NCBI GenBank assembly: GCA_000004985.1
Contig: GG738923.1
Reading direction: 5' to 3' (one strand)
Length of the DNA: 64,000 nt
Source of the DNA: Naegleria gruberi
Lineage: Eukaryota
Made by a program: the position numbers and the translations under genes. Below, in pieces: positions 2,531 to 46,495 of the stretch. The notes below the pieces were generated by a model, which saw nothing but the letters and a program-made list of their open reading frames with translations, was not told the origin of the DNA and did no database searches. How positions within the stretch are numbered: position 1 is the first letter of the stretch; the number at the start of each line of letters is the position of its first letter.

Positions 2531-5500
2531 ATGGCATGCATGAAAGATATGGTGCTCGCTTCGCACACGACACTCAGACAGGTTTCACATCATGTTGTGC
2601 TTGTGATATTGTTGTTTCTTACTCTCTTTCTCAAAGAAGGCCTCTATGCCTATCAGTTCTCCACTCAATTCACAAATAGTCAGCTCGTGTGGAATCATAT
2701 CGACTCTCAATTTGTCAACAAGACGGAAAAGATTGGTTTCATGACCTTTACCTTCTCTTCTACAAAGAATACTCTAGCATGGGAGGTGGTTAATCCTTCA
2801 GTGTATCCCATGCCACAATTCGACACTTTGAATGAGACATTGGTCTTTGCACATTTTCGATTAATTCATAAGAACTTATTGGGCAATAGTGGAAACAATT
2901 TATTCTTGCCTTCTTCAGAGTATTTTGATTACAAAGTGAAAAGGAATGAAGATGGTCTTGATTTGAGCTTTGAAAAACTCTGTTTAAACTTAAATATTAA
3001 GGAAATATCTAGTGCTACTGATGTTATCGACATTCCAGAATTATACAAAAACAAGTATTACATGCAATGGTTTACTTTACAATTGAACATCACTCAACTA
3101 CGAATGGAATTATCATCATTGGTGGCCATCAATGAAACTTTTACAGTTGAATACTACACTAACAAATTATTGAATGAAGTCAAACAGGGTGACTATTCCT
3201 ATTCATCACTCTTACTATTGAATTCTTCTATTACTCAGGCTTCACCAATCAAAACTTCTTCAGATCCAGTTACTAATATTTGTTCTTCAACCTCGCCTGT
3301 GATAGCATTTGCTTGGAACTCATGGAAACTGTGGTTTGTAGTTGTTTTTCTCCTTTTAATGCTAGCTCTATTGATCTTCTCAGTTTGGAGGCCTTATATT
3401 GTTATTATTGTGATTGTTGTCATCTTCAATTTGGCAGGTATTCTGACACTTGATCAAACACTTGCAGGGTTCGCTAATAGTGGTACACTTGTAATTGGTC
3501 TATTGTTTCCCATTGTAAAACCTCTCACTCAGAATTCTTTGGTGTTGAAATTTTCCAAATTTTTATTTGGTTCTCCCATCCAATTCAAAAATATGAAAAG
3601 CAGCAAGCTTCTTCAACACTTATCATTGTTGATACCTACATTGAGAATGTGTTTGGTTTTTTCATTGATTGGAGCTTTTGTGAATAATACACCGGTTGTG
3701 GTATTGGGTTTACCTATAGTTATGGAATGGGCCAGGCAACATAATGTTTCCCCTTCAAAGTTTCTCATGGCACTTTCCTTCATTACTTCTGGGAGTGGAT
3801 TTTTAACATCGATTGGAAATTCATCAAACATTGTGGCGAGCGGAATATTTTCAACATATGGCTATGATGCATTGACATTTTATGAGTTTTTCTATCTGGG
3901 AAGTATTTTGTGTGTTGTAACAATACTCTATCTCATTACATATGGCTTGTGGATTGTTCCAGATGAAATTAGAGGTGAATCAAAAAAAATGAAAAGAACC
4001 ACCATTAATTTTGCTAAAAAAGCTGGTAAAATACTTCACAATTCAAAAACCAGATTTGAAGAGTTTATAGCTGTTGTAAGAATGAATGAATTATCATCCC
4101 AAGATCCTCATACAAAGCCATTTATGCTGTACAGTAACTTGTTGGGAAAAAATGAAGCAAAAATTCTGAAAACGTTAGATTTGGATAGCATTGAGCTTGT
4201 CGAAGTTATTAGAAAATGTGAAAAGAAAGCAGAAGAAACTATTTCTCAAATCAAACCAGAAACTTCAACAGATAATATTCAAGTATCCAACTCTGAACAT
4301 ACTAATGAAACTCCAAATAATGGTGATGAATCTCCAACAAGCTCAGACAGTGGATCAATAGAAATTGACATGAAAAAAATCGAACATGTAAAGCATACGA
4401 TAATTAAGGATACAGATGAAACCAAAAGAATCAAACCAGTTCCTGAAGATTTCCTTATTGAAAAAGATGACATTTTAATATTCAAAGGAAACGCCAAATC
4501 TATTTTGAAACTTCAAGCCATGGTATTAGAAATTGAGGATTACGAAGAAGAAAGTTCGCCTAAACAAAATACTGACCGAGTAACAACCTTCAACTCAACA
4601 ACAGAAGAGGAAACAGTGATGAAAAATTCTCCATCTCAACTCTCCTTAATGAGCAGCTCCTCCCAAGATGAGTTAATCCCAAATGGTAGCAATAGAATTG
4701 ATTCTCCAGTTGTTGGAGGTCAAAATGATATTGTTGCCAGGTTGCATTCCAATCTTAAGAAAAATCATCCAACCAATGAAAACTCTCAAAATCCAACAAA
4801 AGAACAAGACCAGAAAGAAGATAAAAGTGCAGACCTGAGTCAGCTTGAGTTCTTTGAGGTGGTTATTGGTTCATCGAACCCGTGTGTAGGGGAGAATTAT
4901 GAATTCTTTGAGAAAAGATATCAGGTAACAGTATTGGCTATTAGAAATATGTTTTATGACGAGAAACCATCAGAAAGCTCGGATCAAGGTTTGAGAAATT
5001 TTCAAGTGTACACAGGTGATACCATTCTCTTATTAGGTAAAACGAGATTTTATATGAATTATCATAATTCCACAAGAGAATTCTACATGATATCAAGATT
5101 CTCTGAAGTTTCACCACAAGATAATCAATTCAATCAAAGACCATTCCAACTCAGAATTCCATTCACAAATAAGGTCTATCGTCTATGGTGGTGGGAACAT
5201 TGGATTTTCTTATTCTTTTCAGCAATGATTGCCTGTACGATTGCTGGATATTCAATGGTTCAATGTAGTTTAGTGACATTTTGTGTTGTCATTATGTTTG
5301 GCTTGATTTCTCCCACAGATGCCATTGAAAGCATTGATTGGGCTCTTGTAGCACTTGTTGGAGCATCTTTTGGAATTGGAAGTGCTATCACTCAGAGTGG
5401 AGTTGGTCAAGGAATTACTCAAGTATTGAAACTTGCAAATGTGCCACATATTTTATTACCTGCTTTCATAACTGCAATTACCTTAGTGGTAGCAAATGTA

Positions 5501-36798: not shown

Positions 36799-39700
36799 AT
36801 GGCGCAAGTTCTCATCCACACCAGCTGGCCATCAAATAGGCTATTTTTCTTCTGTGTGCTGATGATAACAATTATTTACTTGGCACAAAAAGCATCTCCT
36901 CTCGAATCAAGATTGGAAACTAATTGTCTTGATTGTACTGATAGTGCAATCGGAGGTGGAATTTGGTGTGCTATGGAGAATCGATGTGTTTCATCTGCCA
37001 GTGAATGTTATTCCTCTTTCTATTCAAAATTGAATTCTAATGATGATGGTAATAGATTGTCATTATCCGTGATGATGAATCGGATGAAATCTTTTGTGAA
37101 TATTCATCCTCAAGATGAGAATGAACAAATTTCCGTATTGAATACTAATGAAAATAGAGAAACAGAAGGAATACAAGATTGGAGTAACATGTTTTGGTTT
37201 CTGAAGAATTATACCATGATGAAGGTTGTGAGTAATGATACAGAAGAAGTGGATGAAGAATTTGATGAAGAAAAACATGAACCAATGGAATGGATATCGA
37301 GAATTCCACAACATTGCATGGATGGAGTGATTGACCATCCAAGAAAGTGTCCAAGATTTAATGGTAAGTTATTTAGAGTGAAGAAATGTTAAATATTTGA
37401 ATAGTTTCAATTGCTAGAGAATATTCTCGTTCAACGAGAAATTTAGTGGAACCTATTCCAATTCAACCACAATTGATTTTGGATTCTGTAGATTTATCAA
37501 TTAAGAATTCTATATATGGAAATACTAGTTATCAGGCATTTGTTGGTGCTTTCTTTCCAGATCAACAATTATTTAAAAAGCAAGGATATTTCTTTTCTTA
37601 TGAATTTCATGTTCAAAGAAAAGGAATATTTAAGGTAAAGAAGGGAAAAATTACATTTACTGATCTTTCAATTGCTGCCTCGACTAAGGAGAATCATAGA
37701 TTGGGATTTGGTGTGATGGTGGTGAGTGGATTGAATGGAAGTCTGACAACTGTAAATACCTCAATTCAGTGTGGATTTGTAACATCTTCAAAACCAATCT
37801 ATGTAGAATCTGTTACCATGTACTTTTTATTGAATCCTCATGTATTCGTAGCCCTTCCAATATTCCTTATTGCTATTTCATTAGTTTATATTCAAGTGAC
37901 TTGCTGCTCAAAGAAATATCACCTCAATGATGACATTATAGAGGCAGATACGATAGCTTTGGATGATGACTTACAAGAAGTACCAAAGAAGGAGAGTAGG
38001 ACCTTTTTCACATTGAATTCGAATAGAGATATGGAAGATAAACCATTACTGGGTAAAGCTGTCCAATTTTTCAAAAATTTAGCAATTCACATTGTTGAAT
38101 CAACAATTTCCTTGTTTAGCACCTCTGACAGCGAAATTGTAAGGAAATGTGGAACAGATGTCTATTACTTTTTATGGTTCCAAAAGTATCTCATTCTATT
38201 TGTTACAGTTTGTGGAGCCATCTCAATGATAATACTTTTGCCAATTTATATATTGAGCAAACAGTACGATTATTCATTTAGAGATTTTTCAATGACCACC
38301 ATTGCCTCTATTAACGTAAAGACCAGTATATTGACAATTTTATTTTTCATTATGAATGGTGTTATTCCAGTAATTGGATTTGGTTTATTGTGGAAGATTA
38401 GAAGACTTGCCAGACACATGATTAAGGCAAACAACAATTTTGGAAGCCTATACACTGTGATGATTTCAAATGTGGACAAGACTTTGAAAGATAAGGATAT
38501 TCTCTTACGTGAGTTGAGAGCCATGTTTGGAGATAACTCAATTGTTGATTGTCACATTTGTTTTGATTATTCAAAGATTAATGCACTGGAAAAGGATATT
38601 GAAATCTTGAAAACAAAATTGAGTCTTTTAGACGAGAATAGAAATGTTACTATTAATTACATCAAATCCCTCCATTCAAAACTTGTTAGAAACATGTCTT
38701 TACAGGAGTATTACACGAGTGAAATTGAAAAATCGGAAACCAAACTCTCTGAACTCAAGAAGGAAAATGAAATTTGTGGAACTGGTTTTGCCTTTGCAAC
38801 ATTTTCATCCCTTAAAATGGCTCAACAAGTTTGTGATGAATATGTTACTGACTTTATGGGTTTTATGGTCTCTAAAAAGTATATCCTAAACAAATTTGCA
38901 AGAATCAAGAGTTATCTAACAAATAGTCCAAGTGCTGTACCATCTATTAGAAATAGCTACAACTTTAAACCAGCATGTGAAGCTGTTGATGTAATGTATG
39001 ATAATTTGCAATGTACTACCTCAGAGAGAACTCTTACCAATATTGTTTCCAATGCTCTACTCACATTCATTTTGATTATTGCGTATGCTATTTTAATTTT
39101 CAATAGTTCAATTCCTTGGTACTTTAATCAAAATAAGTCGGAAGTTTATGATTTTGCAGACGGTTCAAAATACTCAACCAATACTATATTCAATTCACTT
39201 CTTGTGTTTTTTGAATTGACTCCTGAAATTATTTCACTCATCAACGAATCTATCAAACCAATTGTTGAAAAACTTGTTGCTTGGGAAAAACCTAAAACTA
39301 GAATGCATGAAAGGAAATCCATTCTCAGAAGAACTACCTACTTTTTCATTATGAGTACTATCATTTTCCCATATGCTTGGACTTATTACAAATCTGTTTG
39401 GAGAATATTTAAATCATTGCCTCCATTCAATAATGAGATTTACTTTTTCAATTTTATTGGAATTGAATTGATTATTACCACTTTGGTATTGGCATGTACT
39501 TCAAAAGGTTTGGATATGATTTTCACCTCAATTTCAATGCTGTATGATTATTGGAGGACTGGAGAATTACACAGACCTAAATTTGATTATGAAGCTGAGT
39601 ATAGCATCAAGATTACATTACTAATAATGTGCCTATTTTATGGAACTTGCATGCCACTAGTTTATATTGCAGTAGTTTTATACTTTATATTCACATATAT

Positions 39701-40292
39701 TGTTGAAAAGTATTTAATCATGTATTGGTATGAAAGATCAATTGAAAGTGATGGAAAGATTCTCAATACTGTTGCAGAAAATATTGGATTTTGCTTTATT
39801 CTTTCACCATTCTACATTATTGTCCTAATGCCAGTTCTACTGAGTAGAAAAATGACCTATTTGTTGGGTATTCCAATAGTAATTCTAATTATTATTGAGC
39901 TTTACTTTTTGATTAGAAAAACAGCTAATAAGGAAAGAGATGCTATCATTATCTCACTCAAGGAACGCTCAGAACAATCACACAAGAAAGAGGACATTGT
40001 TGAAGAATTGGACACCACTCCAACCAATAACACACCAACCAATATTCAAGACGCTTCAGAATATACACGTAAAAATATTGAGGAGGATCATGATTTTATC
40101 AAATTGGAACAAAATGATTGGTTTGAGCATTCACTCCAAGATAAAAGATATCCACCAACCTTTGATAAATTACACGAAATTCTCAACACTGAGGAAACGA
40201 GAATTTTTGAAGAAGATTTGAATTTGGATGTGAACAAATTGTCGAGACAGTATCGCCATCCTTATTTGAGAAAGTTACTGAGGTTTCAGTAG
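36799..40292 (+). CDS. OSCA/TMEM63/CSC1-family mechanosensitive cation channel (RSN1_7TM + cytosolic RRM-like domain). Main exon 37405..40292; probable extra 5' exon 36799..37363 encoding a signal peptide plus Cys-rich domain
   Basis: Family signatures: ...KCGTDVYYFLWFQKYLILF..., the cytosolic domain YTVMISNVDK...CHICFDYSKINALEKDIEIL...ICGTGFAFATFSS, and multiple C-terminal transmembrane segments. The upstream ORF ends at a GTAAGT donor (37364) and joins in phase 1 via a 41-nt intron to an AATAG acceptor (37404) in the same frame (...CPRFN|VSIAREY...). Confidence 0.65.
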
Positions 40293-40395
40293 TCAATATT
40301 TAGTCATGATAAGTTGGTTTCTTGATATTTTTCTTTCTCTTTCTCATTCCATTCAATTATTCCAATTTCTTCTAATTTCCAAATAGTACAATTTA

Positions 40396-40570
40396 GGTTC
40401 TAATAAACATTATTCTAAAGTTTGTGATCTTTCCCTCAGTAACTTTCTCAAATACTGTAACTGTGCCACTCAATCCTTAGCCACATGTTATGGTACTTTA
40501 CCTTCCAGTAGTTCAGTTTGTATTGGTAAAAGAACATGCACAGCTCAATATATTTGCTCATGTTTCCTCC
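40396..40570 (+). repeat. Copy A of a ~175-bp repeat; inverted partner at 45636..45808
   Basis: The reverse complement of 45636-45808 aligns base-for-base with 40396-40570 (about 97% identity; mismatches aaacatt/aaatatt, tattggtaaaagaaca/tatcggtaaaggaaca, cacagctc/cacaactc). Confidence 0.8.
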
Positions 40571-41000
40571 TCAATTGCTATCAGATTTATTTGCGCAAAT
40601 ATTAATAAGTAACAATGACGATGGTAGTTGTTCCTCTACTTCATTATTAACAACAACTTGATGCTATTGTGTTTTTAACTTGGGTTATTAGTCCTTCTTC
40701 TTCTCCGTCACTCTCACAATCTTTTTCCTCCATACTATTTATGAATTTAGTAATATCATTAATACGTTGCATAATTGCAAGATGGTTACATTTTGATGTT
40801 GTAGTAGGTGAGGAATCAAAAGAAGGGGTATAATGAGGGAATGATGGTGATGGTGTGCATGACATTTTTTATGTTTCATTACCAACTTTCACGATTAAGG
40901 CCTTTCCATCAAGTACTGGAAGAACGCCTGCCTCCTTCCATGGTACACATTCTAAATGATTAAATTTTGATTCGTGCGAGCAAACATCTTGAGCTGTTAA

Positions 41001-41088
41001 CATGTTCCTTTACCACTACAAACTGACCTACTGGAAGGTGAAACACCAAAACATGTGCGAATAAGGATTGAGTGACGGTTACAGTACT
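41001..41088 (-). repeat. Truncated, more diverged third copy (B) of the same repeat, in the orientation of copy C
   Basis: catgttcctttaccactacaaactgacctactggaaggtgaaacaccaaaacatgtg...gattgagtgacggttacagtact is about 85% identical to 45664-45750. Confidence 0.6.
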
Positions 41089-41094
41089 ATCATA

Positions 41095-41150
41095 AGTTAA
41101 TGAATTTGGATGTGAACAAGTTGTCGAGAGCGTATCGTCATCCTTTGTGA
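41095..41150 (+). repeat. Duplicated fragment of the OSCA/TMEM63 gene 3' end (copy of about 40210-40262)
   Basis: gaatttggatgtgaacaagttgtcgagagcgtatcgtcatcc versus the genic tgaatttggatgtgaacaaattgtcgagacagtatcgccatcc. Confidence 0.6.
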
Positions 41151-41296
41151 ACAGTCAAATCATGATAACCAATAGGAAAATGTTTACCTGATGGAATCAA
41201 CCATGCTGAACAATTGTTCCAGATTGAAAGTTTTTCCAAATCTGTGATGATGATTTTAGTGAAAATATTGAATTTCACTAAAATATTACTAATATA

Positions 41297-41427
41297 ATAA
41301 ATAACAATGATGATGGTTGGTAGTTGTTCCGATGATCATATATCTTCCTCAACCATTCGAGCCATTCGAGCAACAGCCAATCTTCCTCTTCTTCATTATT
41401 AACAACAACTTGATACTATTGTGAGAT
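41297..41427 (+). repeat. Second copy (with ~50-bp internal insertion) of a ~65-bp element also present at 40611..40680
   Basis: aacaatga(c/t)gatgg..tagttgttcc....cttcattattaacaacaacttgat(g/a)ctattgtg is shared by both loci. Confidence 0.55.
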
Positions 41428-41771
41428 CTTGTGCATTTAGCACCTTATCAAATCCAAAAATCATTTTTTAATTAAATTATAAAAAATATCAAAATAACGA
41501 ATCCTTCATCATACTTTGATCATCATAATTATGAAAATAATTAGTACCAACAAGTGTATAGAATGTGAATGTTCAATCTCATCCTGCAACAAAATACATT
41601 GTAAACAACTCGATGGAAGGACACACTTGTTTGTGCTCCAAACAAAAATTTTCGTCCAGTATTAATAGATTGATGGTTGCTGCTGTATAAAAGGGACCAT
41701 AAACTCTCCATCAAAACAATAATCAAAGAAAAGCAATAACAATAATCAGTGTAAAGTTGTAGTACATTCAG

Positions 41772-44700
41772 TTGAAAATGGGCAAGAGAAAAGCAAGTAG
41801 TAGTATTGGCAATAATGCAAAGACGGTCAAACTTTCTCAAGTAGTACCATCATCATTGCCTGTTCAAAATAGTTCCAATGACAAGGAGATTGTCTACCCT
41901 GCTAGTTTTAATTCTACTTCAGAATTAATGAAAAAGGTCAAGGTACTCTTTACTTCCAATCGTGACGAATGTGAGAAGGAATTATCAATTCTCAAAGAAA
42001 TTAAGGGAATGTTGGATAATGTCAAGGTGTCCTACTTTAAAAATATTACTAAAGGACATCCAATGAAATTAGCTGAAGAAAATCTTAATTCATGCATTGA
42101 CAAGATTAATCAAGTAATTGGTGTTGATGTTACTTTTGTTGGTAGTTCTGGTTTAGGTAAGAGTAGTCTTATCAATATGATTATTGGAGAACCAATTCTT
42201 CCTTGTGGTGATGACATTGGTCACATTACAAGATCAATCTTGGAATTATCTTATGCTAAGAACTATGAAGTAATAGTACAATATTGTAATGAGGAGGAAT
42301 TCAATAAGAGAAGAGCCCTAGCTCCAAAAGAGTTTGCTTCCATTACCTATGAAGAAAAGAAAGATTCTCATGAGACAGTAAATAGTGTCGGGGATATTAG
42401 AGAATTTCTTGATAAACAATTTAGGGAGATGAAAGACCTGGATTTGATCAAAGTTGACAAAATTCTAGGTAAATTACCTGTACAATTGTTACAAGACTTT
42501 AATTTAACTATTCGTGATACTCCAGGATATAAATCTGGTACATTTAGTAGAATTTATCAACATTTCATTGAAAAATCAATTACAAAGACTAATATGATTT
42601 TATTTTTCAGTGAAGGATGTAGGGGAGATGTTTCTACAAGTATATTTAGTGATTTTATTAATCCTATTTTAATGAAAGCTCACAAGAATCCACCATCAGT
42701 TAAAATGCTTATTGGAGGAAGAAATATCAGTGATGAAAAGGTTATGCAATTTAAAAAACTCAAAGAAAAAGTTTCACCAAACAAGATTGATTTTGCTAAA
42801 TTATTATCCATGTATACTGATATGGATCTTGAAGATGTAATTCAAAAGTTGGAACCATTTACTGTAGATTTACCAGTAAATGCTCAATTACCTACACTCC
42901 CTGTTGGTGAAGAGTTTAATATTAAGAACTTGAGAGAAGTTTGCATTTCAATTATTAATAGATTTAATACTCTTATTGTTCCTCATTTGGAATCAAATGA
43001 ATTTGAATCTCAAAAACAAGATTTTCTTGAAAATTTCATGCATGGGCTTGTTGAAGAACAAGGTAGAATCTTACATTCAGAGAGAAAGAATATTATTGAA
43101 ATTACTTGTGCACTTGTACCATTATTAATGTCAATTTGTGTTAATAACTTTTCAGAAAAGCAAACTCAATATTATTTAAGAAAGATTGAAAATGATTTAT
43201 GTGCCTATATGTATGATATTACTCAAAAATTCTCTGATATTGCTATTGAAGAATATAATAATGATTGTGCTATTGAATCTTATGATTTATATATGGATAA
43301 ATTAAGAAAGTCAATTTCCAAAAGACTTAAAGATACTATATCATTTCAAGGATTTAAGAAAATTGCTTTAAATGCCATTTCTGAAGTATCAGAAAATTAT
43401 CCATCAATCACTCTATCCCATAATAGAAAAACCCTTTTACTTTCTAATATTGAACAAGTTTTAACTAGTTGCAAACGAAATATTACAACAGTTTGCAAGC
43501 AATTGTATGAAAATTTGACTAGTAATCCAATTTTTAGAAAAGAGTTCCAAAAGAACACACATTTGAAACAACACACAAATATTAAGAATGAAATCAAGAC
43601 TAATATGATAGTACTGACTAATTTTTTCAATTCTTTATTTGATAAAAATAATAATGCTAAAGTTAATTTAATAGTTGAAACAAAATTCAAACTTACCGAA
43701 TTATTTGAACATTACAAACATGAAAGTCAAGATGATGAATATATCTATTCTATTAATTCAAACTTACCAATTCCATCAAAAGAATCTATTAATCATACAT
43801 TCAAACTCACTCTTCCAACTGAACCACTTAAATATTGGACAAATCATGATGAAAAAGAACCATGGAATCATCTCTCAAACTGTTTAGCTACTAATGACTC
43901 ATTATTGAAAGAGAAAATATTGAGAAATCCAAGTAAGATGAACAGAGAATTAATAGTTGATTTCAATGGTACTAGAATTGACTTTTCAAATCAAAACAAG
44001 ATTCAATTATATAATCTACCAGTGATTCATAATTTGAGTAAATTCCAAACATTATTTACTGGTAATGACGAATTTATTGCACCAATAATGATATTTGCCA
44101 AAGATGAAATCAAACAAAACTTGATTTGCAACACCCTTTCAAAGAATATCAATTCAGATAATTTTTTGGTATTTATATTTTGCCAAGAATCAAATTGGAG
44201 TTCTATTTCTAAACTCGTTAAAGATAATTCATCCTGTTATGTTATTAAGGTTAAGAGTAAGAAATTTAATAAGGGAATATTTGAAACATCAGCTTTAGAA
44301 ATTTCAAAGCATTACAATTTCCCTATTTATCATACAATGACACAATATACAGGAAGAGTTCAAGAATATGTCAGTGATCTCAAATCGTTCAAAACAGCTT
44401 CATTTACATTCATAAGATATTTACGTTTTTCTCAAATAACCATGAAGAAAGAACTATTAGAAATTGATGTAACAAACTTGAAGAAAAATATTGGACAATT
44501 CTTGGCTAGAGTGAGAATATTTATAACTAAACTCACAAGTAATGATTATCAGTGTTTTTTCGATGATACTTTTGAAACTTCTAACTTGATGAACAATAAT
44601 TCAGATTCAGAATCTTTCATGTTGAAATTGAGAGAATTAGATGAAGCAACTGGTACTTCCTTTGCTGAAGACTTTCTCAAAATTAGATTAGCCACAAATA

Positions 44701-45005
44701 AGGCACGTTTAGTGCTTTGGAATGGATCCTCCAATATGGTTAAAGAGTTTAAAGTATTCAATGTCAAGAAAAATAATTATTTCATTAGTTATAGACATGA
44801 TTTAAATTCTATCAATACTTGTTATACTCCATCAATGGTTAATGCTTTGGATGATCAAAAACTTTTTGATTGTGCTTGTTTAGAAGAATATTGTGAACAA
44901 AGTTTGAAGAGTGGATTATTATTTTCAGGAGCTGGTCAATTCATTTGTTATGGATTTAAATTTGAAAAGTTTAATGATGACGATTATGAAAGTGAAAATG
45001 AATAA
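41772..45005 (+). CDS. Large (1077 aa) intronless orphan P-loop GTPase: N-terminal coiled-coil, G-domain (G1 GSSGLGKSSLIN, G3 DTPGY), long helical C-terminal region
   Basis: Walker A / G1 at VTFVGSSGLGKSSLINMIIG. A switch-II-like TIRDTPGYKSG follows about 110 aa later. No canonical NKxD was identified, so this is a divergent IRG/GIMAP/dynamin-like or novel family. The gene sits between inverted repeats A and C. Confidence 0.55.
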   Translation: MKMGKRKASSSIGNNAKTVKLSQVVPSSLPVQNSSNDKEIVYPASFNSTSELMKKVKVLFTSNRDECEKELSILKEIKGMLDNVKVSYFKNITKGHPMKLAEENLNSCIDKINQVIGVDVTFVGSSGLGKSSLINMIIGEPILPCGDDIGHITRSILELSYAKNYEVIVQYCNEEEFNKRRALAPKEFASITYEEKKDSHETVNSVGDIREFLDKQFREMKDLDLIKVDKILGKLPVQLLQDFNLTIRDTPGYKSGTFSRIYQHFIEKSITKTNMILFFSEGCRGDVSTSIFSDFINPILMKAHKNPPSVKMLIGGRNISDEKVMQFKKLKEKVSPNKIDFAKLLSMYTDMDLEDVIQKLEPFTVDLPVNAQLPTLPVGEEFNIKNLREVCISIINRFNTLIVPHLESNEFESQKQDFLENFMHGLVEEQGRILHSERKNIIEITCALVPLLMSICVNNFSEKQTQYYLRKIENDLCAYMYDITQKFSDIAIEEYNNDCAIESYDLYMDKLRKSISKRLKDTISFQGFKKIALNAISEVSENYPSITLSHNRKTLLLSNIEQVLTSCKRNITTVCKQLYENLTSNPIFRKEFQKNTHLKQHTNIKNEIKTNMIVLTNFFNSLFDKNNNAKVNLIVETKFKLTELFEHYKHESQDDEYIYSINSNLPIPSKESINHTFKLTLPTEPLKYWTNHDEKEPWNHLSNCLATNDSLLKEKILRNPSKMNRELIVDFNGTRIDFSNQNKIQLYNLPVIHNLSKFQTLFTGNDEFIAPIMIFAKDEIKQNLICNTLSKNINSDNFLVFIFCQESNWSSISKLVKDNSSCYVIKVKSKKFNKGIFETSALEISKHYNFPIYHTMTQYTGRVQEYVSDLKSFKTASFTFIRYLRFSQITMKKELLEIDVTNLKKNIGQFLARVRIFITKLTSNDYQCFFDDTFETSNLMNNNSDSESFMLKLRELDEATGTSFAEDFLKIRLATNKARLVLWNGSSNMVKEFKVFNVKKNNYFISYRHDLNSINTCYTPSMVNALDDQKLFDCACLEEYCEQSLKSGLLFSGAGQFICYGFKFEKFNDDDYESENE

Positions 45006-45835
45006 ATCTCAAGATTAATCACTTGTTAACACATCAAGCTACTGTTCAATCAGGAGGTTCTCTTTTTGCTAATCAAAATATGACTATTGATTTGGATTTC
45101 ATTCAGGTTGGACAGCATTGTATTGGGATTTGCCACAAGTCCGATCACCAGCAAGATTGCAATTACAATCCTCCACTTGGATTCTATTGTACACTAGCAG
45201 ACCTTTAGGGATGGATAAACTTAAAACTAGCCTACCCTTGATAAATTTGTAATATAATAATTGGATAGTTTCTTAATAATATCAGATATTCAAATTACAG
45301 CTGATTGATTCACATCCAAAAAGTGATTTAACGTTTTCACGTTTATGGAAAGAAATTCATCCTCAAAACCAGTCATGGAATTTGGAAAATGAAACTCTTA
45401 CCATGAATAATAGTTTTAAGCTTGTTTAAATTTGGTATTGACAATTTGCTTTTAATGCATTTCCTTTGACAATTGAACTGAGAATGAAGCAACACCTTCT
45501 CCTTATCGCCCACCATTGAAACAGTTGCAGTAAATTTAGAGTAACTATTCACAGTGGAGGGAATAATGAGATTTTAATGCTTGAAACTTGAATGGTTGAG
45601 GTGGATGTTTCACATTTACTACCACTGTATCCTATGAAACATGAGCAAATATATTGAGTTGTGCATGTTCCTTTACCGATACAAACTGAACTACTGGAAG
45701 GTAAAGTACCATAACATGTGGCTAAGGATTGAGTGGCACAGTTACAGTATTTGAGAAAGTTACTGAGGGAAAGATCACAAACTTTAGAATAATATTTATT
45801 AGAACCGAAATTCTTCTATTGGAAATTAGAAGAAA

Positions 45836-46495
45836 TTAGAATAATTGAATGGAATGAGAAAAGAGAAAGAAAAATATCAAAAAACCAACTAGAGCAAATA
45901 CCAAAAATAGTAAAGGAAGTAAGGTTGATAATGCTGAACCTGCTAAACATCCAGAACTTATCATGACTAAATATTGTACAAATCTGAGAAAGTAATATTT
46001 GAGAAAATACCACAATCCACCATAATTCTTATAATAAATACTAAACTCATCGTCTAGATCATCTTGCAATTTAGTTTTCTTCTTTGTTTTGGCTTGCTGC
46101 ATGAATTTTCGTCCTAGCTTTAGCAAACTCTTCATTGGTTGATTGTGTTTTTGAACCCTTTCATTTTGCATAATAATTGGTTGTTGTTGTTGGTTTGGTA
46201 CCAAGATTGAATTATTCGAAACTAATTGTTCGTTACTTGATTTTTCAATAGGGAACTCTTGAATGATTTCATTGTTTGTTATTGTATGTAAATTCTCTCG
46301 TTTCGGTTGTTGAACAAAATACTTTCTGTAATATTGAATTGATTTCTTCTTTTTCAAAGGAGAAGAAAGGTTTCCGATAGTAGTTGAATAGTTTCCACTC
46401 GAAGCTATTGTATTAGAAGAAAAAGATTGAGAGGAGGGATTCATTTCCGTTTGTTTTTCTTGATGTTTCAAATTTGTGAAACTGCCAACAGTCAA
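45836..46495 (-). CDS. Hypothetical small membrane protein (C-terminal TM hairpin), S/N/Q-rich N-terminus
   Basis: 219-aa ORF. The C-terminal hydrophobic segments are ISSGCLAGSALSTLLPLLFLVFALVGFLIFFFLF. No homology recognised. Confidence 0.3.
   Translation of the reverse strand: MTVGSFTNLKHQEKQTEMNPSSQSFSSNTIASSGNYSTTIGNLSSPLKKKKSIQYYRKYFVQQPKRENLHTITNNEIIQEFPIEKSSNEQLVSNNSILVPNQQQQPIIMQNERVQKHNQPMKSLLKLGRKFMQQAKTKKKTKLQDDLDDEFSIYYKNYGGLWYFLKYYFLRFVQYLVMISSGCLAGSALSTLLPLLFLVFALVGFLIFFFLFSHSIQLF

Follow-up and report, generated by a model that had tools for sequence, protein, structure and literature searches.

The 64-kb window analysed here, the whole stretch of DNA under study, comes from Naegleria gruberi NEG-M and has a G+C content of about 33%. 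It contains, between the gene NAEGRDRAFT_82055 for an OSCA/TMEM63-type channel (OSCA below) and the gene NAEGRDRAFT_75306 for a dynamin-family GTPase, an interval without any annotated feature that is filled with copies of neighbouring sequences, which we refer to as scars. Three sites would have exchanged sequence at this locus, namely the mid-intergenic region and the 3' ends of OSCA and of the convergent gene NAEGRDRAFT_75307. The features of the locus are listed below in window coordinates.

37404-40292, plus strand: long terminal exon of NAEGRDRAFT_82055, the OSCA/TMEM63-type channel gene (P0008, 1150 aa), with its stop codon TAG at 40290-40292
40219-40263, plus strand: X, OSCA coding stretch (..NLDVNKLSRQYRHP), ancestral by outgroup comparison and source of X'
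40263-40283, plus strand: Y, OSCA coding stretch (YLRKLLR), likewise ancestral and source of the 21-nt patches in A (inverted) and C (direct)
40294-40574, plus strand: A, inverted copy of the NAEGRDRAFT_75307 3' end and of the putative EGF-like pseudo-exon downstream of it, beginning one base past the OSCA stop codon
40598-40683, plus strand: R1, first copy of a short repeat R, spanning on the minus strand the last codons (..SSCC, stop) and the 3' flank of ORF72
40647-40865, minus strand: ORF72, unannotated open reading frame (ORF) of 72 codons whose product ends ...SSCC
40978-41103, plus strand: B, older and truncated copy of the EGF-like part of A/C with a diverged Y patch, in inverted orientation to A and in direct orientation to C
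41101-41145, plus strand: X', OSCA coding sequence copied over 45 nt and adjoining B through the 3-nt microhomology TGA
41146-41290, plus strand: s2, spacer after X', found directly behind the OSCA stop codon in strain L001
41291-41435, plus strand: R2, second copy of R, with a 56-nt extra segment flanked by TTCC
41778-45005, plus strand: NAEGRDRAFT_75306, orphan dynamin-family GTPase (1075 aa, 100% identical to P0001), between X'/R2 and C
45636-45976, minus strand: C, made of the NAEGRDRAFT_75307 3' end (stop codon 45836-45838), a spacer of ~70 nt, a Y patch (45748-45768) and the putative EGF-like pseudo-exon
46444-45839, minus strand: NAEGRDRAFT_75307 (202 aa), convergent and downstream, with a C-terminal transmembrane segment

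The three repeat features reported in the initial annotation are all real and far above chance. Pairwise alignment of the listed intervals holds in every case, with E-values against the whole window from 8e-5 to 1e-25 and scores of 40-398 bits, while the best chance match in each of 30 shuffles of the same sequence usually scored 23-34 bits (40 in one of them). The copy of the OSCA 3' coding end, initially given as ~55 bp directly abutting B, proved to be 45 nt long and to overlap B by 3 nt; X' (41101-41145) and X (40219-40263) are identical at 41/45 positions (91%, E=1e-11), and the longest identical run common to both is 19 nt. B is indeed an inverted and truncated copy of A/C, as first described, with limits at 40978-41103 and an inversion that applies relative to A only. 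It aligns with A (40453-40559) at 83.8% over 111 columns with 18 differences (E=1.7e-25) and with C (45643-45749) at 82.9% (E=6.5e-24), or at 78.9% over 128 columns under looser scoring. The homology between A and C themselves is longer than had been implied, reaching from 40294 to 40566 versus 45976 to 45636. It comprises a main block (40312-40566 versus 45890-45636, 95.7% over 256 columns with 11 differences) and a second block covering the last codons of NAEGRDRAFT_75307 (40294-40315 versus 45976-45955, 22/22 identical). Relative to the window's C, A carries a 68-nt deletion, with AGTT as microhomology, and a 32-nt deletion, and its homology to the C of another strain (contig L020, described below) extends to 40574. 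A homology between the OSCA tail and NAEGRDRAFT_75307 upstream of the 22-nt block was considered and dropped, BLASTP and nucleotide shuffle tests both being negative.

The element first reported as ~65 bp present twice resolves into two aligned blocks, 40598-40634 versus 41291-41330 (83%, E=8e-5) and 40631-40671 versus 41383-41423 (95%, E=3e-12); R2 is longer than R1 by 56+3 nt, and not by the 50 bp initially given. The core of the extra segment (TCCTCAACCATTC) resembles the sequence just inside the A/C boundary, and the score of the extra segment against the inner flank of C was reached by 2/2000 and 23/2000 shuffles under two scoring schemes. R1 overlaps the 3' end of ORF72, as had been noted, covering its final 8 codons, its stop and its 3' flank, and both ORF72 and its partial copy end in SSCC before the stop. 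ORF72 is probably not a gene: it has no Pfam match, and neither the protein collection nor the contig index contains its exact sequence. The ORF72 body (40684-40977) shows no similarity to the rest of the window, including 41436-41777, no score exceeding those of shuffles. Similarly, no further copy of any of the pieces was found elsewhere in the 64-kb window, and metagenome scans returned 0 hits for the A/B/C consensus and 17 for a 19-mer of X, none of them Naegleria-related.

One piece missing from the initial list is the Y patch with its copies. Y has perfect 21-nt matches at 40434-40454 (inverted, within A) and at 45748-45768 (direct, within C). The patch in C reads ACAGTAT followed by TTGAGAAAGTTACTGAGG, which corresponds to OSCA 40246-40283 minus 12 nt, a TAT repeat bounding the missing 12 nt. 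Outgroup sequences allow the origin of these pieces to be traced. The window's OSCA protein has the C-terminus ...NLDVNKLSRQYRHPYLRKLLRFQ, and the OSCA proteins of N. lovaniensis and N. fowleri end in ..LDV.RLARQYRHPYLRKIL(R/G)DR.SQQ, with the tail motif ..RQYRHPYLRKIL.. at the end of both and YLRKIL conserved in both orthologues. At the DNA level, N. lovaniensis aligns with window 40209-40274 at 78.8% over 66 nt, a stretch spanning X and the first 12 nt of Y, and these 12 nt are identical; the outgroups also share the Gln (CA) at 40248-49. Since the outgroup OSCA ends carry X followed by Y, these comparisons indicate that the X-Y order is ancestral. On this basis the OSCA-derived pieces can be given a copying direction, from X and Y within the gene, which are ancestral, to X' and the Y patches in A and C.

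A stretch 150 nt further downstream is perfectly complementary (21 bp) to the seven final sense codons of OSCA, so that a stem could form with the stop codon in its loop. The fold of this Y/rcY stem (40263-40283 with 40434-40454) has a z-score of -4.6 against shuffles. It is probably a by-product of the copying, and any effect on the mRNA would be hypothetical. An apparent similarity between the first part of s2 and the OSCA 3' untranslated region was also dropped; it is marginal (37/1000 shuffles) and absent in L001.

For the mosaic, initially reported as lying in non-coding DNA, a source can be named: A, B and C are copies of the NAEGRDRAFT_75307 3' end and of a putative EGF-like pseudo-exon. 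Read on the minus strand, C contains the last 47 codons of NAEGRDRAFT_75307, coding for the transmembrane segment, and the stop codon, followed by the spacer of ~70 nt, the Y patch and the EGF-like frame. It is the most complete copy, and likely the source of A and B. The EGF-like ORF (45560-45790, minus strand), ~70 nt past the NAEGRDRAFT_75307 stop, exhibits the full six-cysteine pattern (..CIGKGTCTTQYICSCFIGYSGSKCE) with a complete CxCxxGYxGxxC ending, and the frame scores 21.8 bits against EGF_2, just under the Pfam cut-off of 22.1. It is truncated in A, decayed in B and frameshifted in the other strain's C by a 32-nt deletion; the differences among A, C and L020 are mostly non-synonymous. 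Moreover, the 87-aa translation has no match in a database of 5.8 billion proteins. Because its copies are truncated, decayed or frameshifted and no database protein contains it, the EGF-like ORF is probably a relic exon. We rejected the idea that it belongs to an annotated gene on account of the same database search, and of the OSCA model, which ends RFQ followed by the stop and is unspliced to it.

The pieces are arranged in an ordered manner. Unit 1 (X, R1, B, starting at 40219, 40598 and 40978) is colinear with unit 2 (X', R2, C, at 41101, 41291 and 45643), all pairs being direct. Unit 1 spans 40219-41103 and unit 2 spans 41101-45768, and they meet at 41101-41103 in a novel end-to-start junction, whose TGA belongs both to the C-type ..AAGTTA(C/A)TGA and to the OSCA-derived TGAATTTGG... 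Microhomologies of 3-4 nt are found at this one repeat junction and at three internal indels, namely the 68-nt deletion in A (AGTT), the 56-nt indel in R (TTCC) and the 12-nt gap of the Y patch (TAT). In C, the 32-nt indel is accompanied by TC and an 8-nt inverted repeat. All patch sources lie within 40219-45976 (at most 5.8 kb); A and its Y patch are inverted, whereas B, X', R and the Y patch of C are direct. The proposal of template-switch repair made in the initial annotation fits this picture, as the microhomologies are 3-4 nt long and the templated patches come in both orientations from at most 5.8 kb away. The similarity between the segments s1, which adjoins A, and s2 is marginal (51/500 shuffles).

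Divergence is uneven among the pairs. A and C (11/256 differences) are less diverged than B and A (18/111; Fisher p=0.0002), while the B/A divergence is indistinguishable from that of X plus R (p=0.18). The gap between A/C and B/A implies at least two rounds of copying or a later homogenisation of A and C, and a single event giving rise to all patches does not agree with it.

To these internal comparisons we can add another strain, represented by contigs L001 (3392 nt) and L020 (963 nt) from the k=127 assembly of ENA metagenome sample ERZ929261/ERR1078381. A search with OSCA retrieved a 939-aa ENA metagenome protein, 99% identical, whose C-terminus ..RIFEDLNLDVNKLSRAYRHPL is read from X'. L001, the contig that encodes it, follows window 36969-40263 at 99.3% identity before jumping to 41101-41240 (96.4%; L001 3248-3384). 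Its positions 3248-3292 match X' at 45/45 and form a single copy contiguous with OSCA upstream and s2 downstream; at 4 of the 4 positions that distinguish X from X', this retained copy is X'-type. The 882 bp between X and X', with Y, A, R1, ORF72 and B, are therefore missing from the L001-type strain, where X' forms the end of OSCA (RAYRHPL in place of the genus-conserved RQYRHPYLRK...). The small OSCA intron is retained in L001, so that the contig represents genomic DNA, and since the identical run between X and X' does not exceed 19 nt, no misjoin at k=127 can have come from the 45-nt repeat. Substitutions between the window and L001 rise toward the OSCA 3' end (8 in 2500 nt versus 8 in the 750 nt before X, p=0.017), one of these differences being the loss of a GAA codon at 40209-40211; this rise could be due to mutagenic repair close to the breakpoints or to a relaxed constraint on the tail.

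The second contig, L020, carries the NAEGRDRAFT_75307 allele and its C, and is 98.3% identical to window 46527-45636. It is without window 45606-45637 (32 nt) and reads CATGTTTCCTCCTCAA there, exactly as A does at 40559-40574. At position 45679, conversely, A agrees with the window's C (T) and differs from L020 and B. In addition, A differs at ~10 positions of its own from the two C alleles and is bordered on each side by unique sequence. This mosaic sharing of variants among A, the window's C and L020's C points to gene conversion between the inverted copies, and the A-type variants in L020's C suggest that the other lineage once had A. Together with the ancestral X-Y order, these variants favour a deletion in that lineage over an insertion in NEG-M, a direction that is read from the outgroup protein tail and from the comparison of two haplotypes. 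The initial suggestion that the region is a hotspot for structural change is borne out: in an independently assembled strain of 99.3% identity exactly the 882 bp between the two 45-nt copies are missing, and that strain's C has a 32-nt indel.

We therefore consider it likely, from these sequence comparisons, that the 40.2-41.45 kb interval is a non-functional scar field produced by repeated local microhomology-mediated duplication or template switching, by gene conversion and by repeat-mediated deletion. The region is a structural-variation hotspot that arises through an ordinary mechanism and not a new functional system. We infer the following order of events. An older event would have generated the X/X', R1/R2 and B/C pairs, which show 9-17% divergence; it may have been a single repair with serial template switching, or a degenerate tandem duplication with X and the Y patch of C at the two ends of its unit, and the older set may have had a single or a multiple origin. 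A younger inverted duplication of the NAEGRDRAFT_75307 3' region would then have landed behind the OSCA stop to form A (4% divergence). Short deletions of 68, 56, 32 and 12 nt may have followed at repeats of 2-4 nt, and A and C would have traded sequence by gene conversion. Finally, in the lineage of the other strain, recombination or single-strand annealing (SSA) between the 45-nt X and X' would have deleted the 882 bp, thereby swapping the conserved OSCA tail ..RQYRHPYLRKLLRFQ for ..RAYRHPL.

Several observations weigh against this reconstruction. For the 294 nt that separate R1 from B (40684-40977), no counterpart exists in unit 2 or elsewhere in the window, and a simple model of tandem duplication followed by deletion consequently fails to account for them. 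The Y patch is 21/21 identical to OSCA in both C and A, although B holds a diverged version, which calls for an extra conversion step. The strain comparison covers both ends of the region in the assembled contigs of one strain, and the divergences by which the events were ordered were estimated on very short sequences. Finally, a second, 100%-identical OSCA 3' end is present on another NEG-M scaffold (P0007); were this copy a donor, the direction of the 882-bp event could be reversed.

This last point leads to the alternative that survives best, albeit as a doubtful one: the 882 bp would be an insertion in NEG-M, the ancestor would have been L001-like (OSCA-X'-s2), and X-Y-A-R1-ORF72-B would have been gained by break-induced or ectopic recombination. 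The donor would be a paralogous or allelic OSCA 3' copy, for example NAEGRDRAFT_64869, with entry through OSCA homology on the left and TGA on the right, and X/X', R1/R2 and B/C would be paralogous donor-recipient pairs. NAEGRDRAFT_64869 (P0007, EFC47409.1), on a 613-kb scaffold, matches the final 221 OSCA codons (window 39627-40292) at 100% identity, and could be a recent segmental duplication, a haplotig or a case of assembly redundancy. The colinearity of the units and the non-homologous junction between B and X' fit an insertion equally well, and a conversion tract would yield the gradient of substitutions toward the OSCA 3' end (8/2500 versus 8/750). However, an insertion requires that the conserved X-Y tail survived in a partial copy only, and it is at odds with the A-type variants in the other strain's C, which suggest that this lineage once had A. 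A deletion by recombination between X and X' accordingly remains our preferred reading of the strain difference.

Candidate mechanisms for the copying itself are fork stalling and template switching (FoSTeS) or microhomology-mediated break-induced replication (MMBIR), and polymerase-theta end joining with templated insertions. The locus resembles the products of these pathways in its clustered templated segments of 21-280 nt, taken in both orientations from sources within a few kb and joined at microhomologies of 3-4 nt, as well as in its higher substitution density near breakpoints. Unlike the outcome of one catastrophic template-switch event, the divergence of the copies is heterogeneous (4% versus 9-17%), indicating several events and later conversion, and assigning a polymerase or pathway here would be naming by likeness. 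The retention in L001 of one 45-nt repeat, without exactly the 882 bp between the copies, is what SSA or unequal homologous recombination would leave, although for such a deletion (SSA or non-allelic homologous recombination) the direction is here deduced from the outgroup protein tail and two haplotypes rather than directly observed. A and C (256+ nt, 95.7% identical, 5 kb apart, with mosaic variants) recall inverted segmental duplications undergoing gene conversion, but unlike palindrome arms they are short, they carry different internal deletions and the inversion isomer was not observed. The colinear units and the end-to-start junction are those of a tandem duplication, from which the locus differs in that the sequence between the blocks is not homologous between units.

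The initial annotation had also offered insertion and excision as an origin of the repeats. For a mobile element, this part did not hold: the ends of the polymorphic segment have neither terminal inverted repeats nor a short target-site duplication, and the window contains no other copies. It would be most surprising if A, B and C were the ends of such an element, whether foldback-like or similar to miniature inverted-repeat transposable elements (MITEs), or of an inverted-repeat cassette with the GTPase, and if the mosaic were its insertion and excision footprints. The A/C inverted repeats (256+ nt, 95.7%) do flank a 5-kb segment with one orphan AT-rich gene, A and B form an inverted repeat of ~110 bp around 411 nt (predicted stem z=-11), enclosing a short non-coding core as in foldback elements and MITEs, and there is a presence/absence polymorphism. 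Yet the inverted homology between A and C includes the coding 3' end of the resident gene NAEGRDRAFT_75307, so that the arms derive from the 3' end of a neighbouring gene; beyond A lies ancestral OSCA coding sequence, beyond C that of NAEGRDRAFT_75307, and these two flanks are dissimilar. No target-site duplication surrounds A-C or A-B, and no terminal inverted repeats occur at the ends of the polymorphic 882-bp segment, which is bounded by direct repeats (X/X' and Y/Y'), the 45-nt pair having one ancestral coding member. No transposase and no other copies were detected in the 64 kb, and the metagenome scans gave no related matches.

A function of the repeats seems equally remote, be it through A-B or Y/rcY hairpins in read-through transcripts of OSCA (small RNAs, 3' end control of the message), through inversion of the GTPase segment by A/C, or through real ORF72 and EGF-like exons. 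High stability is predicted for the stems (z=-4.6 and -11), but they are an automatic consequence of the repeats, and the other strain is entirely without A, B, Y and ORF72. Likewise, the EGF-like frame falls barely below the Pfam cut-off and ORF72 shares its SSCC end with its partial copy, yet the 32-nt deletion that breaks the frame in the other strain is not a multiple of 3, the differences among A, C and L020 are mostly non-synonymous, the peptide occurs in no protein of the 5.8-billion database and ORF72 is absent from the collection. Similarly, we give very little credence to the notion that A/C mark the orphan GTPase gene as a cassette of recent capture that is invertible or mobile, that the hairpins in OSCA read-through transcripts yield small RNAs or couple the expression of OSCA, the GTPase and NAEGRDRAFT_75307, or that strains toggle between OSCA channels with and without the tail through repeat-mediated deletion.

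An assembly artefact (a chimera or a haplotype collapse at short repeats) is highly improbable as an explanation of the window's structure: the OSCA 3' end is duplicated on another scaffold and the junctions j1/A, A/s1, b/B and B/X' are seen in this assembly only, but the OSCA-X, X'-s2 and 75307-C-Y structures recur in independent contigs, making an artefact unlikely for the junctions reproduced in L001 and L020, A has its ~10 private differences from both C alleles and unique flanks, and the repeats (21-256 nt) are shorter than the Sanger reads from which the NEG-M assembly was made.

The genes on either side were also examined. The annotated model of P0008 maps to 37404-40289 at 100% identity, and the OSCA protein of the window contains the RSN1_TM, PHM7_cyt and RSN1_7TM domains in that order, all above Pfam cut-offs. 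The same three domains are found in the N. lovaniensis and N. fowleri orthologues, and by this domain composition the upstream gene is an OSCA/TMEM63-type channel. The annotated model implies an intron of ~26 nt at 37378-37403, between an N-terminal Cys-rich (PSI-like) exon and the channel exon. In the N. lovaniensis segment compared (PYSW02000002.1, 63701-87555), the OSCA orthologue has wholly different neighbours up to 10 kb on either side; local gene order is consequently not conserved between the two species, and N. lovaniensis was dropped as an outgroup for the intergenic region, no common genes being found within that distance.

The GTPase NAEGRDRAFT_75306 has Dynamin_N (E=1.8e-13) as its sole Pfam match, and searches of the 5.8-billion-protein database, PDB and IMG/VR revealed no homologue besides itself. 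A viral origin was considered and abandoned, the protein being without relative in IMG/VR or PDB. With 28-30% G+C, its gene is more AT-rich than its neighbours. Exact-protein look-ups for the GTPase, NAEGRDRAFT_75307, ORF72 and the second OSCA fragment found no record. A promoter and terminator scan was of the bacterial type and hence uninformative for a eukaryote, and nothing useful was found in the literature on N. gruberi heterozygosity or on the metagenome project.

The locus is a well-resolved new instance of an already known type of event, and does not define a new kind of genetic system. It provides a clean natural case, in a free-living heterolobosean amoeba, of local duplications that accumulate behind a gene, exchange sequence with each other and mediate a deletion. 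Gene models and primers based on NEG-M will not carry over to other isolates at this site, which is usable as a strain-typing marker. The most notable consequence concerns the channel: the OSCA tail RQYRHPYLRK.., common to three Naegleria species, is lost in one strain, giving a natural OSCA channel allele without the conserved C-terminal motif, which is dispensable in at least one natural strain.

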